Below, piece by piece: positions 9,511 to 37,732 of a stretch of 60,493 nt of DNA (the first letter of the stretch is position 1; every line of letters starts with the position of its first letter). The notes under the pieces are model-generated. The model did no database searches. It saw only the letters and a list, made by a program, of their open reading frames with translations, and was not told where the DNA came from. Source of the DNA: Candidatus Fraserbacteria bacterium (GTDB lineage Bacteria; Bipolaricaulota; Bipolaricaulia; RBG-16-55-9); assembly GCA_037442925.1 (NCBI GenBank), contig JBBIPG010000004.1, positions 1-60,493 of the forward strand. Reading direction: 5' to 3'. The translations under genes were made by a program, and so were the position numbers.

Positions 9511-12500
9511 ATGGGACAGCAGGCAAGCCACCGCGTAACACTTGAGGATCTGCGCTTGTGTCGAACCCCTGAAGCTTTGTGCGAATATCTGCTTCGCCCA
9601 TTGGGCTATCGTGTGGAAGAATCACTCCAGCCTCTCGATAAGCAAGCCCTCGACCTGGCTCCGGCTGAGGGGAGAGAGGTGCGCAAGATCTATCTGCTTG
9701 CCGATCACGATCGCCAGTTACAAGTGCTCCTTTGCGAACTCGAGAGCCTCGAGAGCACTCCTCTGAACGCACTGGCAAAGAACTTCCTGCGTCGGCCCGG
9801 CAACTATCTCTTGATCGCCACGCAAGATTACAAGACTCTTGTCTTCATCAATCCCCGCCGCCTGCTCGACGACGGCGCACGCCTGAAGATCAAAATCCAT
9901 AAACTCCTCGTCGATACGACCAATCCCACCCGCCACGACCTCGAAGTCCTGCAAGGCCTCTCCGTCGATGGGCGCTCTGCGATAGAGCTGTATCAAGCCC
10001 ACTGCGAGGCCTTCAACGTCGAGCGCGTCACGCAGCGCTTCTATCGCGAATATGCTCGGCTCTTCGAGCATCTCCAGCAACAAGTACACTCCCACAATCG
10101 CGGCATCGCCCAGTTCAAAGACAAAGCCTATCTGCACGCCTTTACCCAACGCCTGCTGGGGCGCGTGATGTTCTTGTATTTCTTGCAGAAGAAGCTCTGG
10201 CTCGCGGGCCATCCCCGCTTTCTCACAACTTACTATCAGCGCGTCGTGCTCGACAAGCGCAAGAACTACTACAGCGACTTTCTCGAAAAGCTCTTCTTCG
10301 AGACGCTCAACCGCCGACGAGCGGATGATCAATCGCCCTGGGGCAATATCCCGTATCTCAACGGTGGCCTCTTCGAGCGCGATTATCGCTTCATGCTCTA
10401 TCTGCCCAATGAACTCTTCGATCCCAACTCGGATCTGGGCATCTTGGGCTTCTTCAACAGCTGGAACTTCACAGTTCAAGAAGACACTCCCTTAGAGTCC
10501 GACGTGGCGCTCGACCCGGAGCTTCTGGGCAAGGTCTTCGAGAACATGATGGAGTCCGCCGAGCGCGAGCAGTCCGGCACATTTTACACTCCACGTACCA
10601 TCGTGCACTTCATGTGCCGCACGGCCCTTGTGGAGCATCTGTCTGACGAGACGAAGCTCCCTCGTGATCAAATCCGAAAGCTCTTTGAGCTAGACGATGA
10701 GAGTAAGCCGGAGCTCACCGTGGCCGAAGCCACACGGATCGAGAAGGCGCTCCGGCAGTTGCGTGTGCTGGACCCGGCAGTCGGGACAGCGGCCTTTCTC
10801 GTCAGCATGCTTCAAGAGATGATCGCGCTTAGAAGAGCCTGCGAGCGAGCCAAAGGAGCGGAAGTTCGAGTGGGCAGTGCGAAGATTGCCGAATGGAAGC
10901 GCGAGTACATTGCCAATTGTCTTTATGGTGTGGACATCAAAGAAGAGGCCATCGAGATCGCCAAGCTGCGGTTGTGGCTCTCTCTGGTCGTCGATCTGGA
11001 GCGCGATCAAGTCATGCCGCTGCCCAACCTCGATTACAAACTCATGGTCGGGAATTCTCTGATGGAGACGCTCGATGGACAGCCCATTCTCACGATGGAG
11101 AAAGGGCAGACAATTGCTCTGTTGCCCACGGAGACACAACGGGCCATCGAGGAGCTCCAGAAGCTCAAAGAGCAATTCTTTGAAGCCGAGCCGGAGGAGC
11201 GAGCCAAGCTACGTCGGGAAATCGAAGAGCAAGAGCGAGATCTCGTGCTCACGCACATTGCCGAGCGCCAACGCGAGATCGACTCTCAGATGAGGGCCAT
11301 TGAGTCACGGCGCCATCGCGGAAGGCTCGCACGTGCTGATGAAAAGCAGCTGGAGAAGTTGATCCAGTTGGGCGGCGCGCTCGCTCAACTGGAGAGCAAG
11401 ATCAATCAGGGCGAAGCGCTGCCGTTTTTTCTCTACAAGCTGCACTTTGCCGAGGTCTTTGCTGAGAAGGGCGGCTTCGATATTGTCATCGCCAATCCGC
11501 CGTATGTGCGCCAAGAGCGCCTCGATGAAGCTCAGAAAGCTGCGTTTCAGCAGGCTTTCGAGTGCTATCACGGCATGGCCGATCTCTATGTCTATTTTTA
11601 CGAACGGGGCTTTCAGCTCTTAAAGCCCAACGGGCTCTTGGCGTTCATCTCAAGCAATAAATTTTTTAGGGCGGGCTATGGCCGGGGCCTACGCGAGTTT
11701 CTCACAAGAAACGCGACCATTCAGACGATCATTGACTTTGGCGATCAGCCCGTCTTCGATGCGACGGCCTATCCGTGCGTGCTGGTTGTCAAGAATGGCC
11801 CGCCTGCCGATGCTGCCTCCGTCCGGGCGCTCACGGTGACGCAGATCGAGGACTTAGAGCATTTAGATCGGAAGCTGGCTTCCGAAGCAATAGTGCTGAA
11901 GCAGACAGATCTTTCGCCCGAGGGCTGGCGGTTAGAATCGCCACAGCTTTTGCGACTGTTGGAGAAGATAAAATCAGCGGGCGTGCCGCTGGGCGAGTAC
12001 GTGGGGGGCAAGTTTTATCGTGGGATTGTGACAGGATTGAACGAGGCATTTGTGATTGACGAGGAGACGAAGGAGAAGCTGATTGCGGAAGACCCAAAGA
12101 GTGCGGAGATTATCAAGCCGTTCTTGCGTGGGCGGGACATCAAGCGTTGGCGGGTGGATTTTCAGAAACGTTATCTGATCTGGACATATGTGGGAGTGGA
12201 CATCGAGCGTTATCCAGCTATCAAGAAGCATCTTGAGCAATTTCAAGAACGGTTAGAGAAGCGTTGGGACAAGGGTGACTATTGGTGGGAGCTTCGGCCC
12301 TGCGACTACTACGCCGAGTTCGAGAAGCCGAAGATTGTGTATCCGGATATTGCTCGCCGATGTGAGTTTGCTTTTGACGGCAACGGATTCTACGTTGACT
12401 GCACCATTTTCTTGATCCCGACAGACAAATGCTTCCTACTTGGGTTTCTTAACTCTCGCTTGATGAATTTCTGCTACTCGCACATCAGCCCCAGTATTCG

Positions 12501-12738
12501 TGGAGACTTCATGCGCTTCAAAACCATCTACATGGGCCAACTGCCGATTGCGCAGGCCACAGAGAAAGAGAAGACTCAAATTGAAAAGCTGGTCGCGCAG
12601 ATTCTCAAACAGCCCAAAGATGAGCGCGTCGCAAAGTGGGAACACGAGATTGACCAGATCGTCTATAAGCTCTACGGGCTGAGCGAGGAGGAGATTGGAT
12701 TGATTGAGGAGTGGGATGCGAAGAGGCAAAGAGACTAA
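9511..12738 (+). CDS. Eco57I-like / Type IIG-like N6-adenine DNA methyltransferase with C-terminal TaqI_C-type target recognition domain
   Basis: IPYLNGGLFE, LLGKVFENM, GTFYTPRTIVHFM, motif I VLDPAVGTAAF, GVDI, motif IV IANPPY, and C-terminal KPFLRGRDIKRW / EFEKPKIVYPDI. Confidence 0.9.
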   Translation: MGQQASHRVTLEDLRLCRTPEALCEYLLRPLGYRVEESLQPLDKQALDLAPAEGREVRKIYLLADHDRQLQVLLCELESLESTPLNALAKNFLRRPGNYLLIATQDYKTLVFINPRRLLDDGARLKIKIHKLLVDTTNPTRHDLEVLQGLSVDGRSAIELYQAHCEAFNVERVTQRFYREYARLFEHLQQQVHSHNRGIAQFKDKAYLHAFTQRLLGRVMFLYFLQKKLWLAGHPRFLTTYYQRVVLDKRKNYYSDFLEKLFFETLNRRRADDQSPWGNIPYLNGGLFERDYRFMLYLPNELFDPNSDLGILGFFNSWNFTVQEDTPLESDVALDPELLGKVFENMMESAEREQSGTFYTPRTIVHFMCRTALVEHLSDETKLPRDQIRKLFELDDESKPELTVAEATRIEKALRQLRVLDPAVGTAAFLVSMLQEMIALRRACERAKGAEVRVGSAKIAEWKREYIANCLYGVDIKEEAIEIAKLRLWLSLVVDLERDQVMPLPNLDYKLMVGNSLMETLDGQPILTMEKGQTIALLPTETQRAIEELQKLKEQFFEAEPEERAKLRREIEEQERDLVLTHIAERQREIDSQMRAIESRRHRGRLARADEKQLEKLIQLGGALAQLESKINQGEALPFFLYKLHFAEVFAEKGGFDIVIANPPYVRQERLDEAQKAAFQQAFECYHGMADLYVYFYERGFQLLKPNGLLAFISSNKFFRAGYGRGLREFLTRNATIQTIIDFGDQPVFDATAYPCVLVVKNGPPADAASVRALTVTQIEDLEHLDRKLASEAIVLKQTDLSPEGWRLESPQLLRLLEKIKSAGVPLGEYVGGKFYRGIVTGLNEAFVIDEETKEKLIAEDPKSAEIIKPFLRGRDIKRWRVDFQKRYLIWTYVGVDIERYPAIKKHLEQFQERLEKRWDKGDYWWELRPCDYYAEFEKPKIVYPDIARRCEFAFDGNGFYVDCTIFLIPTDKCFLLGFLNSRLMNFCYSHISPSIRGDFMRFKTIYMGQLPIAQATEKEKTQIEKLVAQILKQPKDERVAKWEHEIDQIVYKLYGLSEEEIGLIEEWDAKRQRD

Positions 12739-13442: not shown

Positions 13443-13598
13443 CAGCTACCCTCCTCCGCCGGAAAAGATACCACACACTCTCACTTGTACCAACTTGTTC
13501 CACCTGAAGTATAGCAGTTACCTCTCTCAGGATCAAAATGCAGAGTTGGCCGAATGAGCCATCCATGCTACGATCAACCGTTACGGAGACTAAAGACT

Positions 13599-16500
13599 AT
13601 GCCCAGCTACTTGCCACCAGACTATATCGACAACCAGCACGAGACTCTGGCTGCGGCGCTACAGAAGATCATCCGCGATCTGGAGCAGCACGAGGCAGCT
13701 ATCGCCACGGGCTTCTTCGATCCTCGTGTGTGGGAACTCTTGCGAGAAGCATTGCCCCTCTTGAAGGAGTTGCGCTTGCTCATCGGCAAGGAGCCCGATG
13801 TCACCTATGGTGGCCTGGATCGCCTGGATCTGCGCCGACTCTATCGCCAAAAGCTCCAAAGCGATCTTGACGAAATGCCTTATGATGTGACTCATGTGAG
13901 ATTAGTCACAGAGCTGATCGAGTTTCTCAAGCGAGAATCTGTGAGCGTCAAGCTCTACAAGAAGGGCTTCCTGCACGCGAAGGCGTACATCTTTCCCGAG
14001 ATCGCTGTCGTGGGCTCGAGCAATTTCACGCCCTTTGGTCTGACGCGCAACTCCGAACTCAACTTGGTGCGCAAAGAGCGCTCCGTCGCCACAGATTTGA
14101 GAGACTGGTTCGACGCTTTCTGGGAAGAATCTGAGGACTATAAGCCTGAGCTGATTGAAACGCTGGAAGCTTCTAAATTTGGTGGCAAGCCCTACACGCC
14201 CTACGAAGTCTTCATCAAGACCCTCTATGAATACTTCAAAGACCGGCTCATTCCCGAAGCGCCCGAGAGCCAATTGGGGGTCGAACTGGCAGCGTTTCAA
14301 GAAGAAGGCTTAAAGGAAGCCATGCGCATTCTGGATAGACACCACTGCGTACTCATCTCGGATGCCGTGGGACTGGGCAAGACGTTCATCGGCTTGGGCC
14401 TGCTGGAGCATTATCTCTTGCGCAAGCGTCGTCGAGGTCATATCCCGCAAGGGCTGGTCATCTGTCCGGCTCAACTGCGCGACATCCTCTGGAGGCCCAA
14501 ACTGGCTGAGCATGGCCTCAGTGCCACGGTCGTCTCGCAGGAAGAAGTCAGCCGCGCAGATTTCCCGTGGAACGCTTATAAGAACTTCGATCTGGTCTTG
14601 GTGGACGAAAGCCACAACTTTCGCAATCCCGGCATCGGACGCTCTCAAAACCTGATGAAGCTGCTTTCCACAGGAAGACGCGATAAGCATGTCATTCTCA
14701 TGACCGCAACGCCCATCAATAACTCGATCTGGGATCTTTATCATCAGATGATGTTGATGGCCCGAGGAAGCGACGAGTACTTTCGGGATTGGGGCATCAG
14801 TAACTTGAAGGGCTTCTTCCGCAGGGTCGATCAAGGAGCCGCAGAGCTATTTGATCTACTGGAAGAGACGACCGTGCGTCGCAGCCGCTCTGATATCCGC
14901 AAGCGCCAAGAGGCCGGAGAAACCATTACGCTTCACGGCGAAGAAGTCAGATTTCCGCAGCGCGAATTGCAAGCCATCGACTACGATCTTGTCGCGACCT
15001 ATCAAGGTTTCTATCAAGAGATTGCCCGTAGCATTGAGGCACTCAGTCTCGTCAGCTACAACATCGAGGAATTCAAGCGGTCTCGCGATCCGGATCACGT
15101 ACATCGCATACAACGCAACAACGCGCTCATCGGCATCATGAAGACGCTCTTTCTCAAACGACTCGAAAGCTCGGTGGAGGCGTTTGAAGTGAGCATTCGC
15201 CGTCAGCGCCAATTCCAGCAACAGTTCTTCGAGCACCTGCTGCAGAATCGATTGCTAGACACTACAAACCATCGAAAGATTCTGGCCCTGGAACAAGAAG
15301 ACGATGAGGAGTCACTTGTGCAGATCATAGAGAATCTGCCAGAAGTCTCCATTGCTGAATATGATCTCAAGGCCATTCGTCGCGCCGTCGAGATGGATCT
15401 TCAGATCTTTGAGAGTATGGAAGAACGGCTTAAGAAAATCCGCAAAGCCACAGAACAAGACATCAAATTGGATCGCAAGCTGGAGCGCCTCAAAGCGGTG
15501 CTCCTGGAGCGATTTAGGGGGCAGAAGATCTTGATCTTCTCGTACTATCAAGACACAGCAATACATATCTATGAGCGGCTTCAAGGTGACTCAACGTGGA
15601 GTTCTCAAATGGGCAATCCTCGGCTGGGTCTAGTCTGCGGAGCTCGTTCTGTCTATAGCGAACCCGGCTCCGGTGAAGATCGTCATCTGCCGCGCGAGCA
15701 GCTCATCAAGCATTTCGCTCCGCTCTCCAATGCTGCCAATGAGGATGAACGGAAGAGCTTGCAAACACGAGAGATTCAGGTTTTAATCAGCACCGACGTG
15801 CTCTCCGAGGGGCAGAATCTGCAAGATGCTGCCATCTGCATCAATTATGATCTGCACTGGAATCCGGTGCGCATGATCCAGCGAGCCGGGCGGATCGATC
15901 GGCTCAATTCAAAGCACTCTCGAGTGACGGTGTGCAATTTCTTTCCAGAAAGAGGGCTTGAGGATCTTTTGGGGCTTGTCAAGCGACTGCAACAGAGAAT
16001 TACCGATATCCACAGAACCGTCGGCCTCGACACGAGCGTGCTAGGCGAGCGGGTGACCGAGCGGTCGCTGGAGGAGCTCAAGCGTCTCAAGTCGGCTGAG
16101 GAGGGCGTCTGGGAGGAGCTGGAGCGAGAGGTTGAGCTGCTCTCGTTGGATGAGATGAAGTTCCCTTTGATTCAGTGCCTGCAATCGTTGGGAGAAGACA
16201 GACTCAAAGAAATCCCCCTGGGCATTCATAGCGGGAGGCACGCTTCTCTTGATGGTCTCTTTCTGGCCTTCAGAGCGCGTGATCGCCATTTCTGGCGCTT
16301 CTACCCTGCGGATAAGAGCAGTCCTGTATGGAAGGAGAAGCGCAAGATCTTTAAGCTCATTCAATGCCCTATGGAGGAACCGCGGCAGATGCCGACCCCC
16401 AGGCCGGACGTGTTTGAGATCATGGATCGTGCAGTCAAAGACCTGCTAGAAGAGCTAAAGAGCGTTGAAGCCACACGCCGCATCAAGAGCCCTCTCAAAA

Positions 16501-16814
16501 GCATGAACCTCAAGCTCTACAGCGCGCTTCACCAAGGTTCGCAGTCTTCTCAACCCATATCTGCTGATCTGCGTGAGCGTTTGAGCGGCGTCTTGGAAGA
16601 GATTTCTCTGAAGCCCTTCGAGCGTGATCCGGCTCTGAAAGCGATCTGGCAGCAGTTTCAAAAGAGCGGTGATCTCAGAGCACTAGCGGATGACTTGGAT
16701 GCTTTCTTTGTCGAGAACGAACTCTATCGCGACATGGCTCCGCCGGCACTGCTGGAGCGAATTCGTGCAGAAGATCTGCAGCTTGTCTGCTATGAATTTC
16801 TCACGGCCCATTGA
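13599..16814 (+). CDS. PLD-nuclease / SNF2-family helicase fusion
   Basis: N-terminal FLHAKAYIF..AVVGSSNFT (PLD HxK/GSxN); SDAVGLGKT, LVDESHNFRN, MTATPINN, STDVLSEGQNLQ, NYDLHWNPVRMIQRAGRIDR. GGAG RBS before ATG 13599. Confidence 0.9.
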   Translation: MPSYLPPDYIDNQHETLAAALQKIIRDLEQHEAAIATGFFDPRVWELLREALPLLKELRLLIGKEPDVTYGGLDRLDLRRLYRQKLQSDLDEMPYDVTHVRLVTELIEFLKRESVSVKLYKKGFLHAKAYIFPEIAVVGSSNFTPFGLTRNSELNLVRKERSVATDLRDWFDAFWEESEDYKPELIETLEASKFGGKPYTPYEVFIKTLYEYFKDRLIPEAPESQLGVELAAFQEEGLKEAMRILDRHHCVLISDAVGLGKTFIGLGLLEHYLLRKRRRGHIPQGLVICPAQLRDILWRPKLAEHGLSATVVSQEEVSRADFPWNAYKNFDLVLVDESHNFRNPGIGRSQNLMKLLSTGRRDKHVILMTATPINNSIWDLYHQMMLMARGSDEYFRDWGISNLKGFFRRVDQGAAELFDLLEETTVRRSRSDIRKRQEAGETITLHGEEVRFPQRELQAIDYDLVATYQGFYQEIARSIEALSLVSYNIEEFKRSRDPDHVHRIQRNNALIGIMKTLFLKRLESSVEAFEVSIRRQRQFQQQFFEHLLQNRLLDTTNHRKILALEQEDDEESLVQIIENLPEVSIAEYDLKAIRRAVEMDLQIFESMEERLKKIRKATEQDIKLDRKLERLKAVLLERFRGQKILIFSYYQDTAIHIYERLQGDSTWSSQMGNPRLGLVCGARSVYSEPGSGEDRHLPREQLIKHFAPLSNAANEDERKSLQTREIQVLISTDVLSEGQNLQDAAICINYDLHWNPVRMIQRAGRIDRLNSKHSRVTVCNFFPERGLEDLLGLVKRLQQRITDIHRTVGLDTSVLGERVTERSLEELKRLKSAEEGVWEELEREVELLSLDEMKFPLIQCLQSLGEDRLKEIPLGIHSGRHASLDGLFLAFRARDRHFWRFYPADKSSPVWKEKRKIFKLIQCPMEEPRQMPTPRPDVFEIMDRAVKDLLEELKSVEATRRIKSPLKSMNLKLYSALHQGSQSSQPISADLRERLSGVLEEISLKPFERDPALKAIWQQFQKSGDLRALADDLDAFFVENELYRDMAPPALLERIRAEDLQLVCYEFLTAH

Positions 16815-29754: not shown

Positions 29755-31146
29755 ATGGCATTTACACGAAGGAGCAGCATTCTACGACGCCTACTGTGGG
29801 TTACCCTGCTGATTGTGGGTATCGCCCTGATGTTGAGTTTTCCCACACAGAGCCAATCGGCGAGTCCACAAGGCCCCATTTACCTGCTTACCCTTAAGGC
29901 CAGTATCAACCCCGTCACCAAAGACTACTTGGTTCACAACATCGAGCGGGCCCAGCGGGAAGGAGCCTCCCTGGTGCTCATCCAGTTGGATACACCCGGT
30001 GGCCTCGTTTCCTCCACGAAAGACATCGTGGACGCCATACTCAACTCCAAGGTGCCCATTGTGGTCTGGGTGGGCCCAGCAGGAGCCTGGGCCGCTTCCG
30101 CTGGCACATTCATCACGATGTCCGCGCATGTAGCGGCCATGGCTCGTGGAGCCACCATCGGAGCGGCACACCCCGTGAACATCGACGGCAGCGCCCCGCA
30201 AGAGCAGCCATCTCCGGAGGAGCAGCAGGATCAATCCCCAGAAGGCCAACAGAAGAGCCCAAGCGGCGATGCCGTCTCCGAGAAGGTGACGAACTTCACG
30301 GCAGAGTGGGCGCGAGAGATCGCCAAAGTGCGCGGTCGTGATGCTGACTGGGCTGAGGCCGCGGTGCGCTCCAGCGTCACGGCCGGCTGGGAGGAAGCTC
30401 TCAATAGAAAGATCGTCGATCTCGTGGCGGACAGCGTCGAAGAGCTGCTGGCAAAGCTCAACGGCTACTCGCTTCCGGATGGGAGGATGCTTACGACGGA
30501 ACGAGTTCCCCTCAAGAATCTGCCCATGAGTTGGCGAGAGCAACTCTTGAATTACTTGGCCGATCCCAATCTCGTGTATATTCTGCTCCTCATCGGGATT
30601 TACGGCTTGATCTATGAGTTCTTAAGCCCCACGATCGGGCTGGGATTCATCATCGGCGGCATCTCGCTTCTGCTTGCTTTCTTGGGACTGCAAGTGTTGC
30701 CGATCAATCTGGTGGGTCTGGCGCTCATCCTCTTTGGGGTATTGCTCATGGTGCTTGACATCTTCACGCCCACGCACGGGATTCTCACCACCGGCGGCGT
30801 GGTGGCCTTGCTGGTCGGCTCCTTCACGCTCTTTGAGATCCCCGAACCGAGCCTCCAGCTCTCCATGTGGAACGTGCTAGTCACGGTAGGGGTGGTCACG
30901 GGCCTCTTCGTCTTCATCTTGAGCAAGGGGCTGCTCATTCAAAGGCGTGTGCCGGTCACCGGGTTTGAGGGGATGGTCGGTGCAACGGGTGTGGTCAAAG
31001 AAGAACTCCAGCCTCGGGGTCGGGTGTTGGTCAAAGGCGAATACTGGTGGGCGAGCTCCGCTGACGGTCAGCCCATTCGCACGGGTGAAGAAGTCATCGT
31101 AGAGCGCATTGAGCACGGGCGGCTGCTGGTGCGTCGGCGCTCTTAA
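29755..31146 (+). CDS. nfeD: Long-form NfeD membrane-bound serine protease
   Basis: Signal peptide, LDTPGG, AASAG, TIGAAHP, TM bundle and C-terminal OB domain (GRVLVKGEYW.A). Confidence 0.92.
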   Translation: MAFTRRSSILRRLLWVTLLIVGIALMLSFPTQSQSASPQGPIYLLTLKASINPVTKDYLVHNIERAQREGASLVLIQLDTPGGLVSSTKDIVDAILNSKVPIVVWVGPAGAWAASAGTFITMSAHVAAMARGATIGAAHPVNIDGSAPQEQPSPEEQQDQSPEGQQKSPSGDAVSEKVTNFTAEWAREIAKVRGRDADWAEAAVRSSVTAGWEEALNRKIVDLVADSVEELLAKLNGYSLPDGRMLTTERVPLKNLPMSWREQLLNYLADPNLVYILLLIGIYGLIYEFLSPTIGLGFIIGGISLLLAFLGLQVLPINLVGLALILFGVLLMVLDIFTPTHGILTTGGVVALLVGSFTLFEIPEPSLQLSMWNVLVTVGVVTGLFVFILSKGLLIQRRVPVTGFEGMVGATGVVKEELQPRGRVLVKGEYWWASSADGQPIRTGEEVIVERIEHGRLLVRRRS

Positions 31147-31156
31147 ACACTCTCAC

Positions 31157-32914
31157 TCAGTGCCTGACCACACAGAAGGGCAATCCCCGAATCTCCAGCG
31201 GACGGCTGTTATCGGGCGAGTGCACAACCATGCGCCCTTTTTCAAAATACGGGAGCGCCTTCTGATACTGCTTGGGAGCTCCGGCCCGCTCCGCCATCCC
31301 CTGCTCCATGCCTAACAAGATCCTGGTGCTGACTTGCGAGAGGACAGCCTCGCTCACATCTTGCGGGTTTTGCGTGATGAGCACAAGCCCCAATCTGTTC
31401 TTGCGACCCTGCTTGGCTGCCGTCACGAATTTTTCGGCGATGATGCGGTCTTGCTGGGTTTGAGCTTGCGTGAGGTAGCTATGGGCCTCGTCCACAGCCA
31501 GTATCACGGGATATTTCGCGATGCGTCGCCCCCAATCTGTCTCGATGGCCTTGGTCTTGGCATCGGCGATCAACGACATAACAGCCAGCACGACGACTCG
31601 CTCGCCCTCCGCGCTCAGGTGATTCGTCGGGAAGACGCTCACCTGATCCTCTCTGAAGATACTGTCGTAGAGTTTGGTAATGGAATTGGCTCCCTGATCG
31701 AAGATGTGGGCAAACTGGGGTAGCAGGACCCGTCGGCGGATGGCTCCCAGGGTCGCCTCGTGGATGAAGCCGCTGGCGAGATAAGGCTGCATGCGCGCTT
31801 CCTCTTCGAGGAATCGCCGAAAGGCCAGATACGTCCTGTCTTGTGAGTCTTTGAAGAAGTCTCGGATGAGGCGCTCGAGCGCTGTATACTGGGCTTCATT
31901 CAGCTCTCCTCCGGCGATGAGGTAGGGGAAATCGCCCACCAGCTCAAAGGGGATCATGAAATCGGTGTGGGCATCGCAGCCATGATAAGAACATCCGGCT
32001 TCCACGGCCGAGAAGACGGTCAACTTCTGGCCCACTCCACCCACTTTGGCGCCCACACCTACGAGGTTGTCTCGTTCTTCTGGCGGGACGCTCGGGAACT
32101 CAGGGTTCTCATCGCGGAGTCCCCAATACTCATTCTCAGGATCGATGATCACAAGGCACGGCTTGCGCTGCTCTCCGCCGCGTCGCTCCAGCGTGTACTC
32201 TGAACCCACAATCTGTCTTAGGAAGTTCTTGGCAGTATGCGTCTTACCCCGGCCGCTCATTCCGGCGATCAAGACGTGCGTAAAGATCAGTGGATCGCCC
32301 GTCTTCTTCGCATCGTTGATCAAGTAGTACGGGATCTTAAAGCCTCCGCTGAGCGTGATCGGCTCGCCGTTGACGGCCACATAGCCTAAGAAGAGTCCGT
32401 CATCGGGAAGATCAAGGCCCAGCACCACTTCGTCCTTGCTGGTGACACGCCGGACGAGCGCATTGGGTTTCGGGAGATAGCGGACTTCTGTCGGCAATCC
32501 TTCGGCGCTGATCATCGAGATGGGTTCAAGCTCCGCAAGCTGTATGTATTCGTCCTCTCCGACGGATTCCGCGCTGAGGAGCACGTGCACTTCACTCATG
32601 TCGTCGATGGCGTCACGTTTGCGATATGAGAGTCTCTTGACATACGCAAACAGCTTTTCGTCTCGATAATCGAGTGGGATGACGACATATTGGCCGACAG
32701 CCACATCGTTGCGCTTCCCTTCAGGAATGTAGACTTCAATGCAATGCTCTGTAGTGCTGATGAAAAGCTCCTCCGAGATGGCGACACGCCCGATCTCCTC
32801 GGGTTTGAGAGGTCTAATGCCTGCGCGCTCGTCTTCTGGTGTCATAACCCGTTCGGTAGAGCGCCTGATTCTCTCCAGTTCTTTGTCGAGATCGAATTCT
32901 TCTTGCTTTGCCAT
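31157..32914 (-). CDS. herA: HerA-family DNA translocase/ATPase
   Basis: N-terminal HAS-like region, GMSGRGKT, IIDPENEY, VDEAH, KQGRK..LGLVLITQNP. Confidence 0.85.
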   Translation of the reverse strand: MAKQEEFDLDKELERIRRSTERVMTPEDERAGIRPLKPEEIGRVAISEELFISTTEHCIEVYIPEGKRNDVAVGQYVVIPLDYRDEKLFAYVKRLSYRKRDAIDDMSEVHVLLSAESVGEDEYIQLAELEPISMISAEGLPTEVRYLPKPNALVRRVTSKDEVVLGLDLPDDGLFLGYVAVNGEPITLSGGFKIPYYLINDAKKTGDPLIFTHVLIAGMSGRGKTHTAKNFLRQIVGSEYTLERRGGEQRKPCLVIIDPENEYWGLRDENPEFPSVPPEERDNLVGVGAKVGGVGQKLTVFSAVEAGCSYHGCDAHTDFMIPFELVGDFPYLIAGGELNEAQYTALERLIRDFFKDSQDRTYLAFRRFLEEEARMQPYLASGFIHEATLGAIRRRVLLPQFAHIFDQGANSITKLYDSIFREDQVSVFPTNHLSAEGERVVVLAVMSLIADAKTKAIETDWGRRIAKYPVILAVDEAHSYLTQAQTQQDRIIAEKFVTAAKQGRKNRLGLVLITQNPQDVSEAVLSQVSTRILLGMEQGMAERAGAPKQYQKALPYFEKGRMVVHSPDNSRPLEIRGLPFCVVRH

Positions 32915-32943
32915 GGTCCTCACTCATCCCCCTCGTGGGAGTC

Positions 32944-34212
32944 TCACATCAGTTCACTCCGGCTCTGATTATAGCTCCAATCGAGGTCAATCCCGCAGGC
33001 GCGAATCAACGCGGCACTCTCTTCTTCGGTGATACGGGCTCGGCTGTCCGCTCGCCGGATCGCAGGCGGAACCCCTTTGCCCTGGGCGATCTCTGCCAGG
33101 ATTTGCGCACGTAACCGTTCGGGTTCATGTTTCTCAAAGACGATGCGCGGGCACTCGACTTTCAGCACGGCTTTCACCCTCGGATCGTACACGTAGAAGA
33201 AACAGACGTGGTAAGCGCGGGACGGGTGCATTAATTCAAACGATCCCAGGCGCTCAAAGATATCGAAGCTCTCTACGCTCTGTCCTCGACGCTGCGGAAG
33301 CGAGTAGCCCTCCTGCACGAACCAGTTGGTGTACCCAATGGCATCTTTGGGCGTGTTGCTGAGCACAGCCCGCATGAACTGTGCATCGCTGGACCAGTTG
33401 TGGGATTCTGGCTCCAGCGTGAATTCCAAGAACCATGAGGTGCTCGGGTTTTTGTTGAAGCCCACTATAGCAAACCCACGTGCGGCAAACTCCTCGACAA
33501 CTCGCACGGGCTGAGCCAAGATCTCAATAGCGGGCTTCCACTCCGTCCAGCTTGCTCTTATGCCGTTCTCTTCCGGCCAGATCTGATCTTCTCCGGAAAG
33601 ATAGTAGTAGAGCCCTATGGGGTATAGATTCCCATCCAGAATCCAGAGGCCCTGCTGCGGCTTGAGTTCTTGCCGCATACGTCGAGCGTGATACGACTCA
33701 GCTGCCATTCGGGCAAGTCCCCCCACGACGCGCTCAACCTCGTGCTCCAGATATGTCCGCGAGATATGAATTCTCCAGAAGTGAACGTACTCATCTTGAG
33801 ATGTCTCAGATTTTGCGCCACCTAGATCTGTCCTCTGAGAGTGAGAGACCAGTGAGAGCGAGCGAAAGGCCTCCAATGGGAGGTCTTTGTGGCGAGTATC
33901 TGGATCACTGGACAACACGGCTTGATAGGCGCAGAGCATGGTGCCGTTCTCCAATTGCTGGAGGCGTGTGCTGCCACCATCAATGGCATACACGGGCTCA
34001 TACTCTGGGAACGAATAAGCGGCCAACTGCAATACGCTCTCGGAGCGATACTCCAGAGGAGTGAGTGCTTGTATTGCTCCCTTGAGGTGCAGCTTCTCGA
34101 ACAACTGGCGGGCTTCCTCGCGGTGGTTGGGGCTCAGGCGTTGAACTTGTTCGCCGAAGGCTTTCAGTTGATTTCGTAACGTCTGCTTGGCTTCGTTGGA
34201 GAGCATCCTCAT
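32944..34212 (-). CDS. nurA: NurA-family nuclease
   Basis: YAIDGGS, ESYHA, ILDGNLYP and C-terminal G.G.P.AI..AD..ARI; sits between rad50 and herA. Confidence 0.78.
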   Translation of the reverse strand: MRMLSNEAKQTLRNQLKAFGEQVQRLSPNHREEARQLFEKLHLKGAIQALTPLEYRSESVLQLAAYSFPEYEPVYAIDGGSTRLQQLENGTMLCAYQAVLSSDPDTRHKDLPLEAFRSLSLVSHSQRTDLGGAKSETSQDEYVHFWRIHISRTYLEHEVERVVGGLARMAAESYHARRMRQELKPQQGLWILDGNLYPIGLYYYLSGEDQIWPEENGIRASWTEWKPAIEILAQPVRVVEEFAARGFAIVGFNKNPSTSWFLEFTLEPESHNWSSDAQFMRAVLSNTPKDAIGYTNWFVQEGYSLPQRRGQSVESFDIFERLGSFELMHPSRAYHVCFFYVYDPRVKAVLKVECPRIVFEKHEPERLRAQILAEIAQGKGVPPAIRRADSRARITEEESAALIRACGIDLDWSYNQSRSELM

Positions 34213-36620
34213 CTCACCCGATAGACGCGGCTGGTGTTGTCTGCGGTCTTCTCCGTGCGATACTCGTGATCGGCTCCTTCGACAAGTCCCAATTCGTGCG
34301 AAACCACAATCACTTGACCAATACGCCCACCCAGTTCTTCCAGTAGAAACTGCAAGCGATTCACCCGCTCGCGATCCAAATAGATCGTGGGCTCATCGAG
34401 GATGAGCGGCATGCGACTGCTGGCTTGTGCCAGCACCTGATGGATCGCTGAACGAAGTGCGATATTGATGAGCGCTCGCTCACCACCGGAGAGCAGATCA
34501 GGCCGAATGGTACTTCCGTTCTTGAGTTCTACCGTGATATCGTAGTCCTCGGACACGCGTACGCCACGGTAACTCGCGCCCGAATCCATGAGTCGAAAGA
34601 ACTGATTGAAATAAAGCTCAAGGGCCTTGATGTTGCGCGTGCGTAGTTCCCTTTTGAGTGCACCATAGAATTCTGTGAGCTGCTCGAGTTCCGCTTGAAG
34701 GCGCTCGATTGCGGTCAGTTCCGCATCGTTCTGTGCGAGTTCTTCTCTGTACTTCTTGAGCTGCTCCAGTTGAGTGTCAATCTTCCCACGTTCTTGGTGT
34801 AGAGCGCCGATCTCTTGCTCCCGTTGCTTCTTTTGATCCTTGAGCTGCTGTAGCACGACCAATACCTGCTGTGATCTCTTCTCCAGTTCAGCGATATCGG
34901 GCAGACTCCTCTTGATATCTGCAACCTTGGTGCGGATACGGGTCAGCTCATCTCGAAGGGATTCCATGCTCTCCATGAGCGTCTGGCGCTCCTCTTTTCG
35001 CTGGAACCCCTGGTCTTTGATCTGCAGGAGGCGTAGCGCCTGCTCCTTCAGTTGTTCGAGTTGAGTCCGTCGGTTTGCCAGCGCCCTGAACTCTTCGTTC
35101 AACTGCTGGACGGCTTTGTCGGCTTCCCTCTTTAGGGAGCCGATCTCTGCCTCTAGAGTCTGGAGTTTCTCTCTCTCTCGTTGGACTTCTGAGTTCAACT
35201 TCACAAGCGACTTCTCTTTCTGTTTCAATGTGGCGCTATACGTGTTTTCGTGTATGGGTTGCTTGCAGGTCGGGCACTTGCCTTGTTGAATCAGCGCGTC
35301 CATCTCTTCGAGTTCTCGTTGGAGGTTCCGCTGCTGGGTCTCTGCCTGCGCCATGGATGTAAGCAAAGACTCTTTCTCTTTGGAGAGGTTGTCAAGCTGT
35401 TCGGCCATGCGCTTTTGGCGTTCTTGCGTCTGAGAATGGAGGGCTTCTTGCCGTTCGTTCGTTCGCGTCAACTCTTGAGGCAGAATTTCAAGTTCTTCCC
35501 AGTTCGAGGCCTTGCTGAGGGATTTTATCACGGGTTCTTTGGACAATCCCAGCTGCGTGAGCGCTTTGCCGAACTGCGTTTCCAGCTGTTTATATCTCTG
35601 CTTTAGGCTCTCCCGTTCCTGGTCACATTGCTGGACTCTCTTCTCCGCATCGCGAAGTTGCTTCTCCTTCTGCGTGAGTTCTTCGGTACGTTCCTGGATT
35701 TCACGGGTCTGTTCCTCGATGCGCCGGAGTCTCTCCTTAAGACCATGCTGGAGCTCTTCCGCTTGGGAGATCTTCTGCTCAAGTTTTTGGAGTTCAGCTT
35801 GCTGGGCGCGGAGTCTCTCTTCGAGATCTCCTCGGCTTCTCTCGAGATTCTGTCTTTCTCGTTTTTCAATCTCACGCTTCAAGTCTGAAGAGAGTGTGCG
35901 GAGCACATCCAGCCGACGATTGAGAGCTCGTTGCGCCCCTTCTTGTGCTCGCTTGGCGTAGCGATCCAGCTTTTCAAGTCGCAGCAGTCGATCGATCATG
36001 CGACGACGTTCTTCCTCGCTCGTGCGGATCAGCCGATCGATCTCTCCCTGGCGTACGTAGACGCAGTTGGTAAAGTCATCGCGGTTCATGCCGAACAGTT
36101 CTTCAATAGCTTGAGCAACATTCTCGACTCCGAGCCACTCCTCGCCGTCATCGCGACTCAGGCGGCAGTCCTCTTTCTCACTGATGACATGGTCTCCGCG
36201 CCGTCGTAGAGCCATCTGGGCAAGATAACGCTGTGTTCCATGGGAGAATGTGAGCCGCACAGAACCGACATCGGCTCCGATGCGAAGGATATCTGGGAGA
36301 GAGCGATCCATTGCCGGACCGGCTTTGCTCCCATAGAGAGCGAAGAAGACGCTCTCCAGCAGTGAAGATTTCCCGCTGCCGTTGGGGCCCGCGATTACGG
36401 TGACTCCATCTTCAAAGGCGATCTCGGCGTGTTCATAGCACCAGAGGTCTTCAATCTGGAGGGATTCCAACTGCATGGCAGGGGTATGAGATTCCTTCGG
36501 GAGAGTTGGATGCCTCTTGCTTGGCGGTGGACTGGTGGGAAGATCTCTTTCAACGGGCTCACGTTCGCCCTCGGTGCGGGTGAGCAAATCTAGCAGACTC
36601 TGTTCCTTCTTCTTGGGCAT
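34209..36620 (-). CDS. rad50: Rad50/SbcC SMC-like ATPase
   Basis: GPNGSGKSS, Q-loop YVRQGEI, coiled coils, Zn-hook CPTC, LSGGE, LDEPT, VSH. Alternative start at ATG 36476. Confidence 0.93.
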   Translation of the reverse strand: MPKKKEQSLLDLLTRTEGEREPVERDLPTSPPPSKRHPTLPKESHTPAMQLESLQIEDLWCYEHAEIAFEDGVTVIAGPNGSGKSSLLESVFFALYGSKAGPAMDRSLPDILRIGADVGSVRLTFSHGTQRYLAQMALRRRGDHVISEKEDCRLSRDDGEEWLGVENVAQAIEELFGMNRDDFTNCVYVRQGEIDRLIRTSEEERRRMIDRLLRLEKLDRYAKRAQEGAQRALNRRLDVLRTLSSDLKREIEKRERQNLERSRGDLEERLRAQQAELQKLEQKISQAEELQHGLKERLRRIEEQTREIQERTEELTQKEKQLRDAEKRVQQCDQERESLKQRYKQLETQFGKALTQLGLSKEPVIKSLSKASNWEELEILPQELTRTNERQEALHSQTQERQKRMAEQLDNLSKEKESLLTSMAQAETQQRNLQRELEEMDALIQQGKCPTCKQPIHENTYSATLKQKEKSLVKLNSEVQREREKLQTLEAEIGSLKREADKAVQQLNEEFRALANRRTQLEQLKEQALRLLQIKDQGFQRKEERQTLMESMESLRDELTRIRTKVADIKRSLPDIAELEKRSQQVLVVLQQLKDQKKQREQEIGALHQERGKIDTQLEQLKKYREELAQNDAELTAIERLQAELEQLTEFYGALKRELRTRNIKALELYFNQFFRLMDSGASYRGVRVSEDYDITVELKNGSTIRPDLLSGGERALINIALRSAIHQVLAQASSRMPLILDEPTIYLDRERVNRLQFLLEELGGRIGQVIVVSHELGLVEGADHEYRTEKTADNTSRVYRVR

Positions 36621-36682
36621 AGTCTCTCGTGAGGAGTATAGTTGAACGAGTCAGGGGAGAGCAATGAACTTTGGGAAAATTA

Positions 36683-37732
36683 TTACGGTCTCTTCACTAA
36701 CGTTTCGAGCAACTTCGTGACCTCTTCGTCCACTCTCGAATCAGCGACCTTCGGATGGCGAATGATGCCATCGATATCACGAGTCGCCTCCGAGACGTTC
36801 AGTTGTGCCAGCCGTTCGGAGATGAGCGCATCGAGATTGCCGAACTCGAGTTGCACATCCACCCCCTGCTCCCCTTCACTCGACTCTTCTCGTTGGTCTC
36901 GCACACGCACAGCCAAAGCTCCTCGCGAGCGCGCATGTTCCTCAATCTCTTGAACGCGGTGCCCATCACGCGACAGATACACACAGACGACTGCACCCTT
37001 GAGCTGATCTCGATGGGCATCGATGCTCTTGATGGGATCTTCCTCTTCACTGATGTAGAGAAATCTGCGAGTAGGGAGTTCGCGGCGATCCAAGCGTCCC
37101 CTCTTAAGATCGATCAGACTCACTCCTCGCGGCTCGCGCTCATCCAGGCTCCAGCGCTCGGTGCTGCCGGGATACGTGATGAGCACATTCTTATCGTGCC
37201 AGATCTGATGCTCATGATAATCCCCCAAGAGCACATACGGAGCGCCGCAGGCAACTAGATCATCGTAGCGCAGCTCGCCATCGGCGCGGATGCGGTCTAT
37301 CAGCTGATGGCAGACCAGTACGTCTCCCTTTACGTGGAGCAGTTTTACATCGCGACGGCCCGCGTAATCCATGCCATAAAACTTCACACCATGGAGTTCG
37401 TACGGCTCTGAATTGAGATGTACTGCCAAGCCAAGCTGAGCGAAGAGATCGAGCCACTGCACTCCGCGCCGCTGCTCGTGGTTGCCCACGACCCCCAAAA
37501 ACGGGATGCCCACCCCTTTCAACTGGAAGAGCGTCCGAAGCGTCTCGTGAAGGTCTTCTGCTGTGGGATACCGATCATCGAAGAGATCACCAGAATGAAC
37601 GACGGCATCCACTTTTTCTCCGATAGCGATCTCAATGACTTGATGGAAGGCGTGAGAAAAATCAGCTCGCCGTTCTTCAAGACCATACTGGCGGCTGCCG
37701 ATGTGTGTATCCGCCGTGTGGAGGACTCTCAT
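36683..37732 (-). CDS. mre11: Mre11/SbcD nuclease, euryarchaeal-like
   Basis: ADTH, HSGDLFD, VGNHE, LLGDYH, YPGSTER. Confidence 0.92.
   Translation of the reverse strand: MRVLHTADTHIGSRQYGLEERRADFSHAFHQVIEIAIGEKVDAVVHSGDLFDDRYPTAEDLHETLRTLFQLKGVGIPFLGVVGNHEQRRGVQWLDLFAQLGLAVHLNSEPYELHGVKFYGMDYAGRRDVKLLHVKGDVLVCHQLIDRIRADGELRYDDLVACGAPYVLLGDYHEHQIWHDKNVLITYPGSTERWSLDEREPRGVSLIDLKRGRLDRRELPTRRFLYISEEEDPIKSIDAHRDQLKGAVVCVYLSRDGHRVQEIEEHARSRGALAVRVRDQREESSEGEQGVDVQLEFGNLDALISERLAQLNVSEATRDIDGIIRHPKVADSRVDEEVTKLLETLVKRP

Follow-up and report, generated by a model that had tools for sequence, protein, structure and literature searches.

The window analysed here, a 60,493-nucleotide stretch of contig JBBIPG010000004.1 from a Candidatus Fraserbacteria bacterium (phylum Bipolaricaulota; GenBank assembly GCA_037442925.1), carries mre11, rad50, nurA and herA side by side in the ordinary chromosomal housekeeping context of a Bipolaricaulota-lineage bacterium. 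Judged by sequence, all four encoded proteins are of subfamilies typical of Halobacteria, Methanosarcinales and related archaea. We hold with good confidence that the genes form a chromosomal housekeeping module of the archaeal Mre11-Rad50-NurA-HerA type for resecting the ends of DNA double-strand breaks (DSBs), and that Bipolaricaulota received it, most likely, through a single en-bloc transfer from archaea into an early ancestor. Much of this deep-branching, uncultured phylum (including Fraserbacteria and Acetothermia) would then possess a complete resection machine of the haloarchaeal/Methanosarcina type, a clear case in which a DNA-repair system of four components passed between domains long ago. 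The machine itself is known from archaea, and the cluster leaves the understanding of how such resection systems work unchanged. The four genes, and an extension of one of them, are placed as follows; lengths are in amino acids (aa).

37732-36683, minus strand: mre11, 349 aa, haloarchaeal/Methanosarcinales subfamily (NCBIfam Mre11_Halo, Pfam Metallophos)
36620-34209, minus strand: rad50, 803 aa, short coiled coil (NCBIfam PRK02224, Rad50_Halo)
36480-36620, minus strand: lineage-specific N-terminal extension of Rad50, 47 aa (QSLLDLL at 36582-36602, then a Pro/Ser-rich linker)
34212-32944, minus strand: nurA, 422 aa, divergent haloarchaeal-type subfamily (Pfam PF09376)
32923-31157, minus strand: herA, HerA-type hexameric translocase/helicase, 588 aa, GTG start (Pfam DUF87, HerA_C)

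These genes end a string of seven co-oriented minus-strand genes, rpsO-pnp-M16-mre11-rad50-nurA-herA, running from 41698 to 31157. An earlier note on this DNA had described the four as co-oriented, tightly spaced, separated by a 12-nucleotide (nt) gap from the preceding M16 peptidase gene and overlapping in an ATGA at rad50/nurA, and the open reading frame (ORF) list and direct reading of the sequence uphold every part of that description. The M16 stop (TGA, 37747-37745) is followed after 12 nt by the mre11 ATG (37732), and the ATGA at 34212-34209 joins the rad50 stop to the nurA start. The mre11-rad50 junction measures 62 nt in the window. The spacing between nurA and herA is 20 nt, with a Shine-Dalgarno-like sequence (GAGGGGG) ~5 nt before the herA GTG. 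All catalytic motifs checked in the four proteins are intact.

Affinities of the four proteins

The best NCBIfam model for Mre11 is NF041030 (Mre11_Halo), which matches over the full length at 281.6 bits; the equivalog cut-off of that model, 550 bits, is not reached, though it is the top-scoring one. Mre11_Sulfo scores 96 bits and SbcD 69. Rad50 scores 427 bits with PRK02224 (below the equivalog cut-off of 1087) and 399 bits with Rad50_Halo (NF041035), against 91 bits with SbcC. For both proteins the haloarchaeal models thus score 3-4 times as high as those of SbcD and SbcC.

The phosphoesterase motifs of Mre11 are all present (DTH, GDLFD, GNHE, CHQ and GDYHEH), and its C-terminal helices presumably form the Rad50-binding domain. 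Motif V (GDYHEH, 37208-37225) reads LLGDYHEH, Asp standing where GHxH has its first His. This variant had been named earlier as a trait of haloarchaeal and methanosarcinal Mre11, and aligned relatives of both groups confirm it: Methanosarcinales have LLGDYH or LLGDNH, and Halobacteria LLGD[DNE]H. LGDYH is also found in three further archaeal-type contigs. Rad50 has its Walker A motif (GPNGSGKS, 36366-36389), signature (LSGGE, 34479-34493), Walker B motif (LILDEP, 34389-34406) and H-loop (VSHE), as well as a CPTC zinc hook at 35265-35276, residues 449-452 of 803.

Predicted structure agrees with the sequence scores. The AlphaFold model of Mre11 has a predicted local distance difference test (pLDDT) value of 81.9, and its top 15 PDB matches are all Mre11 of Pyrococcus furiosus and Methanocaldococcus jannaschii, with template modelling (TM) scores of 0.64-0.74 and probability 1.0, in keeping with the Mre11 fold of nuclease and capping domains. 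The SbcD structures of Thermotoga maritima, Escherichia coli and Staphylococcus aureus rank below them.

To find relatives of Mre11, one genome per species was scanned (185,579 species) with an Mre11 alignment and motifs specific to the subfamily, and the best 80 loci were kept. In order of rank these are 24 Bipolaricaulota loci and then 56 loci that all belong to Methanosarcinales or Halobacteria; no other bacterial phylum is among the best 80, with remoter bacterial carriers being possible. Identity to the Methanosarcinales and Halobacteria loci is 35-43% over the full length. The closest Mre11 is that of Candidatus Fraserbacteria RBG_16_55_9 (78% identity), followed by those of many Bipolaricaulota/Acetothermia metagenome-assembled genomes. 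After trimming of the alignment, Mre11 proteins of Bipolaricaulota and Halobacteria share 41.8% identity on average, and those of Halobacteria and Methanosarcinales 44.4%. Bipolaricaulota thus stand at nearly the same distance from haloarchaea as Methanosarcina does. Together with the results for NurA and HerA given below, the scores and the scan speak against what would have overturned the earlier proposal, namely a grouping with ordinary bacterial SbcCD and with NurA-HerA of the Deinococcus/Thermotoga kind, or a cluster common in bacteria.

NurA exceeds the cut-off of Pfam PF09376 (30.4 bits against 21), and no sequence match to it was found in PDB (E up to 10) or in NCBIfam. A homologue search with the single sequence yielded matches solely from within the phylum and no outgroup. 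The profile search, run on 1.84 billion representative proteins, yielded 115 relatives, five of them from the phylum and the others at no more than 165 bits. Those outside the phylum are archaeal wherever they are named or can be placed by context. The named ones are NurA of Halobacteria, with Haladaptatus, Haloferax, Natrialba and others retrieved. A profile built from these outgroup relatives recovers the standard NurA of several genera, Haloferax, Natrialba and Halopiger among them; canonical NurAs were not reached by the profile of the window-type protein. The closest NurA is again from RBG_16_55_9 (84% identity). Three acidic residues, D78 (in DGGS, 33970-33981), E172 and D193 (in LDG, 33628-33639), are invariant in the bacterial and the archaeal alignments. 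The AlphaFold model (pLDDT 91.7) has the RNase H-like fold of NurA and matches NurA of Thermococcus kodakarensis, Sulfolobus solfataricus and P. furiosus with probability 1.0 and TM scores of 0.36-0.59, and the T. maritima NurA structure more weakly.

HerA has an FtsK/HerA-type ATPase region with Walker A (GMSGRGKT, 32240-32263) and Walker B (VDEAH, 31481-31495) motifs. It scores 37 bits with DUF87 (cut-off 23.2) and 22.4 bits with HerA_C (cut-off 22), and its N-terminal region is HAS-barrel-like, at 24.3 bits just under the cut-off of 25.2. Characterised HerA proteins (PDB, NCBIfam, PADLOC) match it at no more than 73 bits and in the C-terminal ATPase only; PDB chains reach at most 38 bits, HerA_Thermprot 41, and all curated HerA equivalog models have cut-offs far above its scores. 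The DUF87 ATPases encoded next to archaeal NurA relatives are much nearer, with 29-41% identity over the full length and 251-369 bits. Among them are the HerA of locus L084 (41%, 369 bits) and a Haloferax DUF87 ATPase encoded near nurA (37% over 563 aa, 343 bits).

The latter comes from Haloferax marinum (L081, 8001-11642), where a NurA gene (PF09376) lies two genes away from that of a 630-aa DUF87 ATPase with 37% identity to the window HerA. In this one Haloferax locus examined, nurA and herA are split by a small opposite-strand gene and are unlinked to mre11-rad50. NCBI now names NurA in many Haloferax species, the comparison having covered species other than H. volcanii. The haloarchaeal-type NurA-HerA branch appears to be uncharacterised and to have been overlooked in the Haloferax literature.

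Distribution, gene order and origin

Homologous loci compared with the window cluster are labelled L001 to L088, L001 being that of Candidatus Fraserbacteria RBG_16_55_9. The mre11-rad50-nurA-herA cluster is present in at least 12 independent Bipolaricaulota assemblies from different studies, the four genes being contiguous in L001-L007, L013, L018, L019, L023 and L088. Since it is common to much of the phylum, the cluster should be an old acquisition and not a recent import. Linkage to rpsO-pnp-M16 is confined to the closest relatives of the window, a Fraserbacteria-like subclade (L001-L005 and L024). In one subclade (L008, L011, L012, L014, L017 and L020) herA is not adjacent, and in a deep clade (L021, L022 and L082) the cluster site holds mre11-rad50 only. 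Automated annotation already names the bacterial proteins NurA or 'DNA repair exonuclease'.

Several of these loci have peculiarities of their own. The gene after nurA in L008, L011, L014 and L020 encodes a SurA-N/PpiC rotamase of ~650 aa with a SecDF-P1-like C-terminus; considered at first as a divergent HerA, this ORF proved to be a peptidyl-prolyl isomerase of SurA/PpiC type. An ORF of 344-354 aa near rad50 in L021 and L082, considered as a cryptic NurA, had no match in Pfam or to the NurA hidden Markov model (HMM). L020 has a duplicated N-terminal fragment of Rad50 (166 aa) between rad50 and nurA. Between mre11 and rad50, L001 (11228-14589) and L003 (11185-15776) have ~4.7-4.9 kb inserted, which shows that this junction tolerates insertions: the L001 insert encodes a DEAD-box helicase fused to a phosphoribosyltransferase-like domain, plus DprA, and the L003 insert holds unrelated peptidase and cohesin-repeat genes. 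L014, L022 and L023 are labelled 'uncultured Thermotogae bacterium', probably a misassignment; their Mre11 and Rad50 fall inside the Bipolaricaulota clade, and L014 also carries NurA, L023 both NurA and HerA.

Outside the phylum, all four genes are found together at three loci. (The taxonomy of L083-L087 was inferred from neighbouring genes.) L087 has the order mre11-rad50-nurA-herA at low G+C content (GC) and is clearly archaeal, because it adjoins genes for MCM, RadA, TBP and Hef. L085 has the same order, and L083, which adjoins the gene of the archaeal chromatin protein MC1, has nurA-herA-mre11-rad50. These loci make en-bloc transfer from an archaeon with the present gene order plausible. 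No homologue of NurA or HerA was found by local HMMs of the bacterial proteins within 10 kb of mre11-rad50 in the 56 archaeal loci of the Mre11 scan, where Pfam identifies an ABC ATPase, a family B DNA polymerase, PHP and MFS among the neighbours. A simple en-bloc transfer from Methanosarcina or from haloarchaea proper was rejected on this ground.

The history that we favour would have started with one transfer of the whole block from a Halobacteria/Methanosarcinales-like archaeon to an early ancestor of Bipolaricaulota, followed by vertical inheritance with local rearrangement. The latter would have removed herA from its neighbours in one subclade, left mre11-rad50 alone at the site in the deep clade, and joined the cluster behind rpsO-pnp-M16 in the Fraserbacteria-like subclade. 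Mre11 identity within the bacterial clade goes down to 46%, and this depth, together with unremarkable base composition, indicates an ancient event and not a recent one in this genome. The bacterial copies form a clade of their own and, in direct comparison, are no more than 23-41% identical to the archaeal proteins (up to 45% for Mre11 in the trimmed alignment), so the cluster is not recent archaeal DNA. For the lateral transfer from Euryarchaeota that had been proposed earlier, the archaeal affinity of all four proteins (model scores, Mre11 scan, NurA profile search) is thus well founded, while the direction is a matter of parsimony: archaea to bacteria is preferred mainly because several archaeal lineages stand against one bacterial phylum, which supplies five of the 115 NurA representatives.

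Phylogenies of the four proteins, suggested earlier as a check, bear out the proposal in part. Our trees are rough, being neighbour-joining trees rooted at the midpoint without an outgroup, and they do not prove the direction. Bipolaricaulota are monophyletic in all four, and in those of Mre11 and NurA they are nested within archaeal diversity. The Rad50 and HerA trees have their root between bacteria and archaea, with no nesting, and this is one of several points that weigh against the reading given above. Scores below the NCBIfam equivalog cut-offs mark the bacterial proteins as a separate (sister) clade and not as strict orthologues. Halobacteria and Methanosarcinales have mre11-rad50 alone and nurA-herA elsewhere, so the en-bloc scenario leans on archaeal contigs of less certain identity. 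According to a 2020 review (PMC7776575), HerA and NurA are missing from H. volcanii. As to function, the activity of the bacterial clade, and likewise of the haloarchaeal-type NurA-HerA, is predicted from genes alone. In Thermus thermophilus and Deinococcus radiodurans, moreover, NurA-HerA is dispensable and its role unclear, so that its part in vivo in a bacterium may differ from that assumed here.

The transfer could also have run the other way, the subfamily having arisen in Bipolaricaulota-like bacteria, where the cluster would be native, and having been given to the ancestor of Halobacteria and Methanosarcinales. These archaeal lineages have imported many bacterial genes. Their Mre11, Rad50 and NurA diverge from those of other archaea (separate NCBIfam models; canonical NurAs beyond the reach of the profile), and the midpoint root of the Rad50 and HerA trees separates Bipolaricaulota from all archaeal sequences, as such a history would have it. 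We nevertheless regard it as improbable. The subfamily occurs in several archaeal lineages (Halobacteria, Methanosarcinales, the L083 type and L087) and in just one bacterial phylum, whose share of the NurA representatives is as small as stated; the Mre11 and NurA trees place that phylum inside archaeal diversity; and in their folds NurA and Mre11 come closer to structures from archaea than to those from bacteria.

Predicted function and an extension of Rad50

By homology with the systems of Sulfolobus, Pyrococcus and Thermococcus, the likely mechanism is DSB end resection. An Mre11 dimer and the Rad50 ATPase, with the zinc hook as their tether, would recognise and clip DNA ends. The hexameric HerA translocase would then feed the duplex into a NurA dimer, and NurA would degrade the 5′ strand (or both strands), leaving a 3′ tail for RecA. 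The biochemical activities of the four window proteins are predicted by analogy with these characterised ones.

The Mre11-Rad50-HerA-NurA operon of thermophilic archaea (Sulfolobus, Pyrococcus, Thermococcus) was described by Constantinesco et al. (2002, 2004), as cited in PMC7776575. The window cluster resembles it in comprising the same four families in a co-oriented tight cluster with the same catalytic motifs, and solved archaeal structures are the best matches to the folds predicted for NurA and Mre11. It differs in having a bacterial host, in low sequence similarity (Mre11_Sulfo 96 bits, HerA_Thermprot 41 bits, NurA none), and in the additional N-terminal LLDLL peptide on Rad50. Gene order differs too, herA-mre11-rad50-nurA in the thermophile operon and mre11-rad50-nurA-herA in the window.

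The closest relatives are Mre11-Rad50 of Halobacteria and Methanosarcinales (H. volcanii, PMC2700283), which share with the window 35-45% Mre11 identity, the LLGDxH motif and the order mre11-rad50, with the genes overlapping or adjacent. In contrast to the window, their Mre11 is longer (387-700 aa against 349), their Rad50 mostly longer (842-1287 aa against 803), and nurA-herA is not within 10 kb. For NurA and HerA the closest identified relatives are the NurA/DUF87 pair of Haloferax marinum (WP_151112823, WP_151112819), with NurA at 27% identity and 95 bits and HerA at 37% and 343 bits; the Haloferax-type and window NurA share the invariant residues D, E, D, K, W, D, W and D.

A bacterial precedent exists in NurA-HerA of D. 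radiodurans and T. thermophilus (PMC9960219, PMC5448004), which is regarded as archaeal in origin and follows the same nuclease-translocase logic. It represents a different subfamily, since PDB HerA scores at most 38 bits with the window HerA and a sequence search of PDB yields no NurA. Bacterial SbcCD is a homologous nuclease-ATPase pair of the same overall architecture, set apart from the window proteins by its scores (69 bits for SbcD and 91 for SbcC, where the haloarchaeal models reach 282 and 427). We know of no report of Deinococcus/Thermus NurA-HerA linked to archaeal-type Mre11-Rad50, and our search for literature naming Bipolaricaulota or Acetothermia together with Mre11 or Rad50 found none.

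That the genes for NurA and DUF87/HerA are physically linked to mre11-rad50 speaks for a shared function. The cluster is the first evidence from genomic context for joint action of the haloarchaeal-type NurA/DUF87 pair and Mre11-Rad50. It also offers a mesophilic, non-halophilic source of haloarchaeal-type NurA and HerA proteins for biochemistry.

Defence systems, too, can contain HerA and Rad50-like ATPases, and the cluster might therefore be read as an anti-phage or anti-plasmid system built on HerA and an SMC-like ATPase (compare Sir2-HerA, DUF4297-HerA and Lamassu-like systems) and not as a repair module. PADLOC matches are found for HerA (70-73 bits) and for Rad50 (LmuB, 128 bits, the highest score of any defence ATPase with this protein), and ~15 kb away lie genes for a type IIG restriction-modification enzyme and for an HKD-Snf2 helicase. 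All the same we judge this very unlikely. The PADLOC scores are far under those of repair-type relatives (343-427 bits), the best HerA match covers only the C-terminal 76 residues (73 bits), NurA has no PADLOC match, and there is no effector partner such as Sir2 or DUF4297. Moreover, none of the four partners of the canonical repair machine is missing, and the locus is conserved among housekeeping genes across the phylum, unlike a variable island. The two defence-type genes look like a small defence island of their own: an Eco57I/MmeI-like type IIG enzyme at window positions 9511-12738 on the plus strand (PADLOC REase_MTase_IIG, 435 bits), and a DrmD-like HKD(PLD)-Snf2 helicase at 13554-16814, also on the plus strand (PADLOC 'HKD+Snf2', 272 bits).

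The most novel lead offered by the cluster is the N-terminal extension of Rad50. The rad50 ORF starts 47 codons upstream of the point where homology to archaeal proteins begins, and the extra sequence is kept as protein in 21 of the 23 Bipolaricaulota Rad50 ORFs, so the longer ORF start is real. Its near-invariant motif is [LIVA][LVW]DL[LFWM], typically x-L-L-D-L-L, and the linker that follows is variable and rich in Pro, Ser and Asp. The two bacterial loci without LLDLL belong to the deep clade, which also has no adjacent nurA and herA. The 50 archaeal Rad50 proteins compared have no extension, with 29-31 residues before Walker A; L083 and L087 have 29. In L085, whose Walker A was missed by the search pattern, the N-terminus was read directly and has no extension either.

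The LLDLL peptide resembles the binding motif of the bacterial beta sliding clamp, QL[SD]LF or QLDLF. There is an outside chance that Rad50 gained a docking peptide ([EQ]-x-[SND]-L-L-D-L-L with a disordered linker) after the acquisition, one that would tether the complex to the bacterial replisome or else recruit NurA-HerA. A tether of this kind would parallel the PCNA-Mre11 contact reported in Pyrococcus (PMC6009593). If true, it would be an example of a transferred multi-protein machine being wired into a new host. Confined as it is to the bacterial copies, the peptide is a testable candidate for adaptation to the bacterial host.

Chromosomal setting

The cluster is bounded by the following genes.

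41698-41420, minus strand: rpsO, bacterial ribosomal protein S15, head of the string (TIGR00952 S15_bact, 117.6 bits)
41405-39027, minus strand: pnp, polynucleotide phosphorylase (PNPase), ORF of 792 aa (NCBIfam PRK11824, 1031 bits)
39088-37745, minus strand: M16 zinc peptidase, directly upstream of mre11 (Pfam Peptidase_M16 and M16_C)
29755-31146, plus strand: NfeD-family membrane protease gene, convergent with herA (Pfam NfeD domains)

The NfeD gene, whose end lies 10 nt from the herA stop, forms the 3′ boundary of the cluster. A convergent NfeD gene also follows the cluster in L088, with an extra uncharacterised gene (643 aa) between herA and NfeD. The flanking genes in the window are bacterial (S15, PNPase, GreA, several bacterial-type aminoacyl-tRNA synthetases, molybdenum-cofactor genes and RNase HII), and GC is level over cluster and flanks (0.53-0.59), with no anomaly of base composition. 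An assembly or binning artefact, with an archaeal fragment chimerically joined to a bacterial contig, would suit a window that probably derives from a metagenome-assembled genome (judging by its closest relatives), but is hardly credible in view of the unambiguously bacterial genes on both sides on the same contig (S15_bact, PNPase, GreA, aminoacyl-tRNA synthetases and NfeD), the flat GC, the recurrence of the arrangement in independent assemblies and the distance of the bacterial clade from archaeal proteins.

Co-transcription of the cluster with pnp, which the earlier note had also proposed, is plausible from the 12-nt gap behind the M16 gene, with no terminator predicted. A scan of 30.5-43.5 kb for promoters and terminators found sites no more numerous than in shuffled sequence and is uninformative on operon structure.

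A strong adenine-thymine skew (-0.29) across rad50 (window positions 34001-36000) comes from the minus-strand coding of a coiled coil rich in Glu, Lys, Gln and Arg; it does not mark a compositional island. The last 62 nt of pnp lie inside the M16 ORF as annotated from its TTG start; probably one of these ORFs has been drawn too long at this junction. Past the usual KH-S1 C-terminus the PNPase ORF continues into a second S1 domain, with Pfam S1 matches at residues 636-702 and ~713-791.

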